From contig JAYPBG010000004.1 of assembly GCA_038124075.1 (NCBI GenBank), positions 4,173-29,037 of the forward strand: DNA of 24,865 nucleotides, written 5' to 3'. Positions 1 through 20,352 of this stretch are shown piece by piece; positions within the stretch are counted from its first letter, which is position 1; each line of letters starts with the position of its first letter. Below the pieces are notes generated by a model that saw nothing but the letters and a program-made list of their open reading frames with translations, did not search any database and was not told where the DNA came from. Origin of the DNA: Gammaproteobacteria bacterium (lineage in GTDB: Bacteria > Pseudomonadota > Gammaproteobacteria > Pseudomonadales > JAYPBG01). The translations under genes were made by a program, and so were the position numbers.

Positions 1-399
1 ACCCTATCCATAACATCAAGTGACGGTCGTGCCATGGGTACCTTGGCTTCGTACCAGTTCGATGATGAAGGTCTCTTAACGCTGAACTACTCCAATGGCG
101 AAACCATCGACGGACCCAAGATTGCACTGGCCTCCATTCTCAATTTAAATACATTGGTGGCTTCCAGTGACACGCTGTTCCAAGCGAGCGACGCCACTGA
201 ATTTCAATTGGGCTACGCGCAAGAACAGGGGCTTGGCCGAATCGAACCTAACGCGATTGAGCTTTCCAACGTTGAGCTCTCTAAAGAGTTTTCCGACATC
301 ATCGTTGTACAGCGCGGCTATCAAGCCACCTCGCAAGTACTCTCTGTCACCAATGAGATGATCGAAACCCTATATAACACGATAGGGGGCGGCCGCTAG
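1..399 (+). CDS. flgE: Flagellar hook/basal-body rod family protein (FlgE-like), C-terminal part; 5' end lies outside the window
   Basis: Frame is open from base 1 (TLSITSSDGRAM...). Ends in the conserved hook/rod C-terminal helix ELSNVELSKEFSDIIVVQRGYQATSQVLSVTNEMIETL, preceded by the G-x-G-x-I-x-x-x-A-I-E-L-S-N-V motif. FlgE is preferred over FlgG, but the missing N-terminus prevents certainty. Confidence 0.8.
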   Translation, partial: TLSITSSDGRAMGTLASYQFDDEGLLTLNYSNGETIDGPKIALASILNLNTLVASSDTLFQASDATEFQLGYAQEQGLGRIEPNAIELSNVELSKEFSDIIVVQRGYQATSQVLSVTNEMIETLYNTIGGGR

Positions 400-1082
400 T
401 GGATCCTTCAAGCGGAATTAATATCGATTTTACCGACTTTAATAAAGAGCCTACACAGTTGGCCAATTCCATTCAGATCCTTCTGATCTTAACGGCCCTC
501 AGTCTTGCACCGGCGATGCTGATTGTACTCTCTTCATTTACACGCATTATTATCGTTCTATCGATGCTGCGCCACGCCTTCGGTATGCAGCAGACTCCGC
601 CCAACGTGGTGCTGATCAGTTTAGCGCTTTTTTTAACCCTCTTCTCTATGTCACCCGTGCTCGATGAGATGGGCACCATTGCTCTTAACCCTCTTAAACA
701 GGGTGAGATCACCACGTTAGAAGCCGGTGAGCGTGCCCTTGTACCGCTCAGAGCCTTTATGCTGAAGCACACGCGTGAAAAAGATCTGGCGTTAATTCTT
801 GAGGTCGCCAAACAGCCTCAACCCAACAGTCCGGACGACATCAAAACCACCCATCTGATTCCCGCGTTTATGTTGAGTGAGTTACAAACCGCATTCCAGA
901 TTGGGTTTGTCATTTTTCTCCCTTTTCTGGTCATCGATCTCATCGTTGCAGCCATATTAATGTCGATGGGTATGATTATGGTGCCCCCATTAACCATTTC
1001 CCTTCCGATTAAAATTTTAGTCTTTGTGCTTATTGAAGGCTGGGCACTGATATCACACGCATTAATTGGGAGTTTTTTTTAG
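399..1082 (+). CDS. fliP: Flagellar type III export gate protein FliP (227 aa, no N-terminal signal peptide)
   Basis: Hallmark FliP motifs SFTRIIIVLSMLRHAFGMQQTPPNVVLISLALFLT, KHTREKDLAL, LIPAFMLSELQTAFQIGF and MGMIMVPPLTISLPIKILVFVLIEGW. GTG start overlaps the flgE TAG (TAGTG). G-rich RBS AGGGGG at 384-389. Confidence 0.96.
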   Translation: MDPSSGINIDFTDFNKEPTQLANSIQILLILTALSLAPAMLIVLSSFTRIIIVLSMLRHAFGMQQTPPNVVLISLALFLTLFSMSPVLDEMGTIALNPLKQGEITTLEAGERALVPLRAFMLKHTREKDLALILEVAKQPQPNSPDDIKTTHLIPAFMLSELQTAFQIGFVIFLPFLVIDLIVAAILMSMGMIMVPPLTISLPIKILVFVLIEGWALISHALIGSFF

Positions 1083-19970: not shown

Positions 19971-20352
19971 AAAATCAGATCAAAGTAAGGAAATTAAGCC
20001 AGGGCTTAGTGGGACAGATTTCACACAAAGTCTTGTAAAACTCGCATTTATTTTTCCAGTTCCTTTGGCAGGACTTCTTCATCCGGTACTACTAATATTG
20101 GCACTTTTGTATTCGTTTACATTTTTCTACTCTCAAAGCTTTTTTAAGAGAATTAAAAATAGTGCCCCAGAAACCTATTTTCTTTTACATATATTTTTAT
20201 GGATTACTTCCGCCATAACAGTTCTTTTCTACGCCTTGATACATTACTTAAAATTGGTTGACTTTGGCCTAACTTGTGTATCTTATGCTATTTCTCTTTA
20301 TGGTATTAAGTTTTACCTAGAAAAAAGAATATATAATTTGAGAGATAGTTAA
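19960..20352 (+). CDS. Small AT-rich polytopic membrane protein, putative immunity protein
   Basis: ATG overlaps the last 11 bp of the giant gene. Three to four hydrophobic segments, no recognisable family. Spot count of 21/60 G+C at 20221-20280. Confidence 0.75.
   Translation: MINKKSDQSKEIKPGLSGTDFTQSLVKLAFIFPVPLAGLLHPVLLILALLYSFTFFYSQSFFKRIKNSAPETYFLLHIFLWITSAITVLFYALIHYLKLVDFGLTCVSYAISLYGIKFYLEKRIYNLRDS

Follow-up and report, generated by a model that had tools for sequence, protein, structure and literature searches.

We analysed a stretch of 24,865 nucleotides, called the window here in its full length (G000:C4:4173-29037), from a gammaproteobacterial metagenome-assembled genome (MAG) that is 92% complete and consists of 629 contigs. 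Eight genes, all on the plus strand, succeed one another in its first 20,352 positions: the 3′ end of flgE, fliP, four genes for small exported proteins, a gene for a giant RHS protein of 5,461 residues, and a membrane protein gene that overlaps the giant's. This co-oriented series had been described in an earlier account made without database searches (the sequence-only reading), and it was seen again in our listing of open reading frames (ORFs) and in our family scans. The window is best explained as the distal part of a motor-less gene cluster of flagellar type, with a probable cargo locus after it, the giant being the candidate cargo.

The export-gate gene and the giant protein

The flgE end (1..399, plus strand) comprises the last 132 codons of the hook protein gene and matches Flg_bbr_C in Pfam and FlgE in NCBIfam. 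The gene extends upstream past a 10-N scaffold gap that adjoins the window start; scaffold N gaps fall inside flgD and flgE, and the stretch from the 3′ end of flgE to the giant is free of gaps. The FlgE C-terminus encoded here shares 43–53% identity with its counterparts in other clusters of this type. The start of fliP (399..1082, plus strand) overlaps the flgE stop, and its product, a subunit of the flagellar-type export gate, matches PF00813 over its full length and the equivalog TIGR01103 at 256 bits, above the cut-off, against 185 bits for yscR. This FliP is 55–73% identical to the FliP of motor-less clusters in other genomes and 50% identical to the MAG's own canonical FliP on contig C393.

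The giant is encoded at 3585..19970 on the plus strand, and RHS repeats run along most of its length (PF05593, E 8e-109). It had been noted to lack a Sec signal and to have a single cysteine, which holds: there is no N-terminal hydrophobic signal, and the cysteine is residue 4811. Residues 1–34 (3585..3686) are rich in glycine, serine and leucine, begin MTQIISSEGLGLL, and form a candidate export signal. They fit the family-defining motif M-[VT]-x-I-[VI]-[ST]-G-x-G-L-G-L, which stands at the extreme N-terminus and is followed by a DUF6531 domain. We found this motif at the extreme start of 13 giants linked to fliP and of 78 giants from loci that were collected with the giant as seed, the profile of the fliP-linked set being M-V-A-I-V-S-G-x-G-L-G-L...Y-V-N-x-A-T-G-N-L-V-L-Q. 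The version in the window, MTQIISSEGLGL, is closest to MTQIFTGEGLGL of the Legionella giants, and over its first 600 residues the window giant is 35% identical to a giant adjacent to fliP in Hahella. In an AlphaFold2 (AF2) model of residues 1–330, the predicted local distance difference test score (pLDDT) is below 50 for residues 14–29, and the N-terminus is predicted to be flexible. The MAG giant starts MTQIISS and a flagellin of the same genome starts MAQIINT; among some 16,000 ATG-led frames, the pattern M.Q[IV]I[NS][ST], defined post hoc, fits only these two. We treat this resemblance, noticed by eye and counted with a post hoc pattern, as a lead only.

The DUF6531 domain (residues 35–111) and the RHS/YD shell occupy 3687..17756 according to Pfam, with a CBM60-like insert at residues ∼4242–4328. 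The structure of the shell was modelled for residues 1–330, and this model matches the Rhs cores 8qjd, 7pq5 and 7q97 of type VI secretion systems (T6SS) (Foldseek, E ∼1e-9, query TM-score 0.66). Within the giant, the G+C content drops from 0.50–0.55 to ∼0.43 at window positions ∼9000–10000 and stays low for 8 kb, which suggests that the gene is a mosaic of differently derived segments.

A conserved pre-toxin module follows the shell (17757..19001). It comprises a LysM domain at residues ∼4725–4771 (a full-length match at 20.7 bits against a cut-off of 20.9), a proline-rich stretch, a transmembrane (TM) helix at 4809–4839, glycine-rich segments, and FxW motifs at 4900 and 4971. The LysM/TM/FxW module stands where other Rhs proteins have the DPxGL aspartyl autoprotease motif; the giant has no such C-terminal Rhs-core motif, its sole DPxG match being at residue 631. 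Residues ∼4565–5139, which run from the last RHS repeats through LysM domain, proline-rich linker and TM helix to the pair of FxW modules, align at 39% identity (E 2e-93) with the corresponding region of the fliP-adjacent Hahella giant, and the likeness ends at ∼5139, with ∼320 residues left. We define the giant family by three features: the extreme N-terminal motif, the RHS shell, and the pre-toxin module of LysM, proline-rich stretch, TM helix and two FxW motifs.

The remaining residues, ∼5140–5461 (19002..19970), form a variable C-terminal tip that we presume to be the toxin; it contains a hydrophobic glycine-rich segment and has no sequence match in Pfam or the PDB. The gene that overlaps the giant's end by 11 nt (19960..20352, plus strand) encodes a 130-residue membrane protein with hydrophobic segments at 25–58 and 72–100, amounting to two or three hydrophobic helices, and without a match to a family or to a PDB sequence. 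Tip and membrane gene have the layout of a polymorphic toxin locus, according to which the tip would be toxic and the membrane protein would confer immunity, the latter role being presumed only from the position of the gene. Neither VgrG, PAAR or Tc domains nor TcA or TcB genes were found within the window by family scans, in agreement with the sequence-only reading, and the giant has no RTX repeats, PAAR or VgrG.

A motor-less flagellar-type cluster and its linkage to giants

The MAG has four FliP/SctR and four FlhA/SctV paralogues, which we sorted by tblastn with the proteins of a related cluster from Hahella. A canonical flagellum lies on contigs C39, C100, C393 and C432, with the only FliG_C match on C39 and flagellins on C62 and C114, so that the genome does have a separate canonical flagellar locus on contigs other than the cluster's. 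Two injectisome-type type III secretion systems lie on C37 and on C239/C40. The SctN/FliI-like ATPase of the former (C37:6312-7528) aligns as two pieces (6312-6935 and 6950-7528), which suggests a frameshift or an assembly error.

The fourth system is of flagellar type and is divided between C77 and C4. The earlier expectation that it would continue upstream of the window is borne out: fliF, a 245-codon gene in the position of fliK (X245), flgD and the rest of flgE precede the window on the C4 scaffold, and the remainder is on C77, the minus strand of which carries TPR, fliQ, fliR, flhB, flhA, flgF, flgG and flgA as intact, tightly packed ORFs. Just upstream of the TPR genes of C77 lies the 3′ end of a large minus-strand ORF (C77:9500-12673, L139) of at least 1,057 residues, with Gly-Ser-Asp repeats and the look of a cadherin/VCBS-type adhesin; it is unrelated to the giant.

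Synteny ties C77 and C4 to the cluster of Hahella sp. NBU794. This cluster begins with TPR, TPR, fliQ, fliR, flhB, flhA, flgF, flgG, flgA, flgH, flgI, flgB, flgC, fliE and fliF, and continues with a 158-codon gene, fliH, fliI, two unknown genes, flgD, flgE, a FliM-like gene, fliN, fliO, fliP, TPR and a gene for a giant of 5,993 residues. No gene for flagellin, hook-junction, cap or stator proteins, nor a full-length fliG, is present in the complete Hahella cluster or in the assembled parts of the MAG's. The assembled upstream genes are not an ordinary complete motility locus; they include neither motor nor filament genes. The FlhA on C77 is 57% identical to that of the Hahella cluster and 48–55% identical to copies from Burkholderiales, Legionella, Stenotrophomonas, Pseudoalteromonas and Rhodanobacter, against 36–38% for the MAG's other FlhA/SctV paralogues and 38–43% for canonical FlhA. 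By its distinct FlhA group and its gene order, we assign the cluster to the motor-less type that is in print as the second putative partial flagellar system (PFS2) and the FlhA3 type.

Relatives of the window FliP occur in Hahella, Luminiphilus, Thiodiazotropha, Lysobacter, Steroidobacter, Massilia, Variovorax, Noviherbaspirillum and others, in the common order fliF...flgD-flgE...fliP. The linkage of giants to such genes recurs. A giant with the N-terminal motif lies on the same strand within 10 kb downstream in 13 of 80 loci of the FliP clade, and in six further loci the conserved C-terminal module is found on the opposite strand. Starting from the giant instead, of eight contigs that encode N-terminal homologues, seven show cluster genes at a distance of 10 kb or less, the giants standing at either end of the cluster, usually with TPR genes in between; in the giant-seeded GTDB loci the figure is 17 of 78. 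Five carrier genomes hold 16 giants, six or seven of them beside the cluster, with one at each end in Hahella. Adjacency was seen in Hahella, Lysobacter, Steroidobacter, Variovorax, Cupriavidus, Dyella, a Pirellula MAG and others. A plasmid search placed giants on replicons of Undibacterium, Variovorax, Burkholderia and Ralstonia, and the one neighbourhood inspected, that of the pUKW01 giant, is free of flagellar genes over the 20 kb upstream. A search of 40 genomes from the MAG's own order gave generic RHS matches and no orthologous locus, the collection containing no close relative of the MAG.

Some of these loci have features of their own. In Cupriavidus sp. SW-Y-13 (L142 5384-9675), genes for a YcaO/nitroreductase and a 2OG-Fe(II) oxygenase lie between the fliA-TPR genes and the giant, and a 2OG-Fe(II) oxygenase is also encoded 5′ of the giant in L143. 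One Burkholderiales genome (G575:C2:209054 and neighbours) has seven giants with the N-terminal motif, in frames of up to 11,836 residues, two of which flank an FlhA3 cluster.

Co-occurrence extends beyond adjacency. Among 301 Burkholderiales genomes, 12 have giants with the N-terminal motif, 11 have an FlhA3-type FlhA (48–54% identity), and 10 have both, so that the FlhA3 type is found in 10 of 12 giant carriers and in 1 of the remaining 289 genomes (Fisher's test, 5e-16, without phylogenetic correction). One of the two genomes with a giant only, G443, carries the cluster according to locus L074. We also tested ten genomes in which no flagellar gene lies within 10 kb of the giant. The eight proteobacterial genomes in this set (five Legionella species, Stenotrophomonas maltophilia, Pseudoalteromonas holothuriae and Rhodanobacter) all carry an FlhA3-type FlhA as well as a canonical one, and in the five Legionella genomes the former is 52–55% identical to the FlhA of the MAG's cluster.

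A sigma-28-like sequence, CTAAAC-N16-GGAT(A/G)A, stands upstream of nine of the 13 fliP-linked giants. We tested a strict form, CTAAAC-N15-17-GGATA, on the independently collected giant-seeded set, in which 21 of the 78 giants have it at 75–180 nt upstream, and 15 of these 21 are orphan copies; the background is 0.0006 per shuffled region, and none of 70 control windows inside genes contained it. Most clusters have a fliA-like gene 3′ of fliP. Because of this gene and the shared promoter, the data point to giants and cluster forming one regulon in the relatives.

The sequence-only reading had proposed that an atypical flagellar-type cluster may secrete or display the giant, and had named two bioinformatic outcomes that would speak against this: an ordinary motility locus upstream, and a lack of recurring linkage. 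Given that both linkage and co-occurrence recur, and that the upstream locus is no ordinary motility locus, neither outcome was found.

Small exported proteins and the flanks of the giant gene

Four small genes, all on the plus strand, separate fliP from the giant. The gene for s156 (1171..1641) has its likely start at the ATG at 1261, and its product has a signal-like TM segment ending AHA and a C-terminal domain with two cysteines. The product of s290 (1776..2648) has a signal and FG-GAP repeats in Pfam, and ends in the same domain. These are followed by a predicted lipoprotein of 76 residues (2716..2946), with the lipobox LTAC in its translation, and by s141 (3045..3470), which has a signal, a coiled-coil-like look and two cysteines. 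The paired cysteines earlier ascribed to three of these proteins are indeed there: s156, s290 and s141 each have two, those of s156 in the mature part.

The two-cysteine domain common to s156 and s290 is 80 residues long (E 1e-5). Its AF2 model, with the order beta-beta-beta-alpha-beta-beta, is of low confidence (pLDDT 56), and the top Foldseek matches of this model are AB5 B subunits, the likeness suggested in the sequence-only reading, but are not significant (E ∼1 and a probability of at most 0.25, with none at E ≤ 0.001). No family matches s156 or s141 above the cut-off. For s290, a search among 5.8 billion proteins returned only generic FG-GAP matches, and a match to TcdB_toxin_midN is below threshold (16.6 bits against a cut-off of 24.8). 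None of the four genes is present in any related locus, where the same slot holds a fliA-like sigma factor gene and TPR genes. Thus the idea that these Sec-exported proteins are conserved partners of the giant is not supported; we regard the four genes as a lineage-specific insertion, and their products are probably outside the system.

A sigma-70-like site lies at 1090-1118. Upstream of the giant, a direct repeat of AGTCATACGGTAA occurs twice in perfect form at 3482-3510 with 16-nt spacing, with a third, degenerate copy near 3518. This repeat lies 75–100 nt upstream of the giant's start codon, the position of the sigma-28-like promoter in relatives, and may be a regulator binding site.

On the 3′ side of the immunity-like gene, the region 20490-24746 contains three ORFs: one of 363 residues with a weak match to REP-associated tyrosine transposases (41.8 bits against a cut-off of 80), an ankyrin-repeat protein of 300 residues, and a minus-strand ORF of 573 residues without annotation. 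These may mark the edge of an island or include an orphan immunity gene.

Proposed export of the giant and comparison with known systems

Our proposal is that the giant is exported through the flagellar-type gate of this cluster. Such export is plausible because the giant family co-occurs with the cluster and often adjoins it, and because many giants have a sigma-28-like promoter in common; we put its probability at roughly 55%, and lower for the stripped copy in this MAG. The flexible extreme N-terminus of the giant would serve for its recognition. The unfolded protein would then pass through the FlhA/FlhB/FliPQR gate and along the rod-hook channel, where it would take the place of filament proteins, and would fold into its RHS shell outside the cell. 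The LysM/TM/glycine-rich module would then deliver the variable tip to a neighbouring cell, and the 130-residue membrane protein would protect the producer. In its widest form, the proposal would be that a flagellum has been converted a second, independent time into a dedicated toxin exporter, with RHS proteins of 4,000–12,000 residues replacing flagellin as the late substrate that passes through rod and hook and, in this MAG, proton-motive force alone driving export without an ATPase complex or C-ring of the cluster's own. We advance this wider form tentatively, at clearly less than even odds.

Several observations weigh against the proposal. A Pfam scan of the first 60 residues of eight giants gave no match to flagellin, FliD or rod proteins. 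Window positions 1083-3584 contain no sigma-28-like promoter. The cluster's flgH, flgI, flgB, flgC and fliE genes were not found, and would fall exactly within the unassembled gap between C77 and C4. The other adverse points fall to one or other of the rival explanations considered below.

It may be that giant and cluster are only co-inherited and co-regulated, as one island and one FliA-type regulon, and that the giant leaves the cell by another way: insertion by its own TM and glycine-rich segments, a type I secretion system (T1SS), a T6SS, or lysis. The flagellar-type machine would then serve another end, such as adhesion, sensing or contact. Two genomes of Kribbella (Actinobacteria) lack FlhA but carry giants with the same N-terminus, which fits such a route; the actinobacterial giants could reflect either horizontal transfer or a flagellum-independent route. 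Apparently intact giants with an identical extreme N-terminal motif, MVAIVAGSGLGL, were seen at L194, L209, L210 and L212 (Kribbella) and at L225 (a Mycobacterium MAG). A sister family of giants points the same way. It occurs in 17 small genomes among 400 of the MAG's class, in proteins of 3,300–5,900 residues from genomes of 1.5–3 Mb (L119-L137; G046, G074, G097, G147, G221, others), and has the same GLG...SSL core behind an extension of 6–12 residues. None of the sister giants is near flagellar genes, and five near-complete members have no FHIPEP gene at all; the 400-genome sample contains no FlhA3-type FlhA, and the sister family is the sole kind of giant in it. Directly 5′ of 13 of 19 sister giants is a gene for a conserved leucine-rich repeat (LRR) protein of 860–1,250 residues, with which the giant may form a separate two-gene delivery system. 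Since the sister family occurs in FHIPEP-free genomes, the N-terminal domain is neither exclusive to nor dependent on a flagellar gate; it is the subfamily beginning with the motif itself that tracks the cluster.

Candidate machinery for other routes is also to hand. T1SS genes (an ABC transporter and a membrane fusion protein) and a HemolysinCabind protein gene stand between or beside giants and cluster in two unrelated loci, L140 (2348-9120) and L143 (27894-33312), and RTX/HCBP domains are present in several giants elsewhere. A T6SS sheath gene (TssC) lies on C429 of the MAG, and no PAAR was found in the 92%-complete assembly. The cluster's want of ATPase and C-ring genes likewise favours exit by some other route. 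What tells against these routes is that the window giant has neither RTX repeats nor PAAR or VgrG, that co-occurrence in proteobacteria is nearly complete even for giants far from the cluster, and that the motif is at the extreme N-terminus in 78 of 78 loci of the subfamily, the FlhA-free sister family having an extension instead. We consider exit by another route less likely than the proposed export, though by no means negligible.

The composition of the MAG's copy raises a different doubt. The locus has no fliH, fliI, fliJ, half-size fliG, fliM, fliN, fliO or fliA. The absence is seen in contiguous sequence, as fliF leads directly to the FliK-position gene and flgE directly to fliP, at which two places relatives carry ∼3.5 kb and ∼1.7 kb of genes; genome-wide, there are three FliI/SctN against four FlhA. 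No fliA-like or TPR gene lies 3′ of fliP, the best FliA-like match in the genome being 29% identical (C215) and the TPR homologues being on C77. The cluster might be a remnant, decaying or disabled, without the ATPase, C-ring and sigma factor that it once had, and with an inherited adjacency, of no present function, to a giant that is perhaps inactive or otherwise served. These losses favour that view, as do the missing sigma-28-like promoter and the orphan genes and sigma-70-like promoter between fliP and the giant. However, the genes that remain are all intact ORFs with tight or overlapping junctions (flhA of 707 codons, flhB of 376, fliR, fliQ, fliP, flgF and flgG) and without pseudogene debris, and the giant is uninterrupted over 5,461 residues. 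In addition, ATPase-free flagellar export is documented in Salmonella (PMC4230889). From its intact genes and overlapping junctions, the copy looks like a stripped variant produced by streamlining rather than decay, and we hold a remnant to be improbable. Less probable by far is a chance juxtaposition, or an assembly chimera, of an RHS island and a flagellar operon. The fragmentation of the MAG into 629 contigs, the N gaps inside flgD and flgE, and the G+C drop from 0.55 to 0.43 within the giant could be taken in its favour, but the sequence from the 3′ end of flgE to the giant is gap-free and the same adjacency recurs in the genera named above.

RHS toxins are known to travel by T6SS, Tc, Sec and type IX secretion routes. 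If our proposal is right, a flagellum-derived route for the largest RHS proteins would be an added secretion pathway, and would show what the 'partial' or 'third' flagellar clusters of Legionella, Xylophilus and Lysobacter are for. What the window contributes is a minimal form of this machine, with gate, rod and hook genes and no ATPase, C-ring or sigma factor; if active, it would bear on how little export apparatus suffices for a very large substrate. Our literature searches turned up no paper that connects RHS proteins with a flagellar-type system or with this cluster type. New here are the counts of co-occurrence in Burkholderiales and in genomes with unlinked giants, the test of the promoter on orphan copies, the exceptions in Kribbella and in the LRR-linked family, and the variant without ATPase and C-ring.

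The giant resembles the Rhs effectors of T6SS (RhsA, 7q97; Photorhabdus, 7pq5; Salmonella bongori, 8qjd) in its RHS repeats, in the start of its beta-cocoon, and in its variable tip with a downstream immunity-like gene. It is four to five times longer, and unlike them it lacks PAAR, VgrG, a clade domain and the C-terminal DPxGL motif, and has the LysM/TM/FxW module and the conserved Gly/Ser/Leu-rich N-terminus. As for Tc toxin complexes, their TcA and TcB partner genes are not present here.

The cluster type itself has been published, without a function, as PFS2 of Legionella (PMC5655016) and as the flhA3 'third flagellar type' of Xylophilus (PMC13436205). The likeness lies in the basal body, export apparatus and hook genes, in the absence of flagellin and cap genes, and in an FlhA that forms its own group. 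Both papers treat gene content only and leave RHS giants unmentioned; the MAG's copy differs in additionally lacking fliH/I/J and fliM/N/O. A flagellar type III secretion system, that of the non-flagellated Lysobacter enzymogenes, which reportedly exports antifungal proteins, is a precedent for a flagellar-type gate that exports non-flagellar toxins (PMC7688988). Its reported substrates are small enzymes, export depended on FliI, and the system has been read as leftover flagellar genes (PMC7688988). It therefore differs from our case in that its substrates are not RHS giants and in that it needs FliI, which is missing from the MAG's locus. Other Lysobacter species (loci L059, L061 and L063) fall in the FliP clade of the window, and five giants with the N-terminal motif are encoded in L. 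hankyongensis.

The injectisome is derived from the flagellum, has lost the parts for motility, and exports toxins and effectors by means of N-terminal signals, with TPR-type chaperones. The present cluster differs from it in keeping the flagellar rod, hook and L/P-ring genes and a flagellar-type FliP and FlhA, and in having no needle, secretin or translocon genes. If it does export the giant, it would be a natural parallel to the origin of the injectisome.

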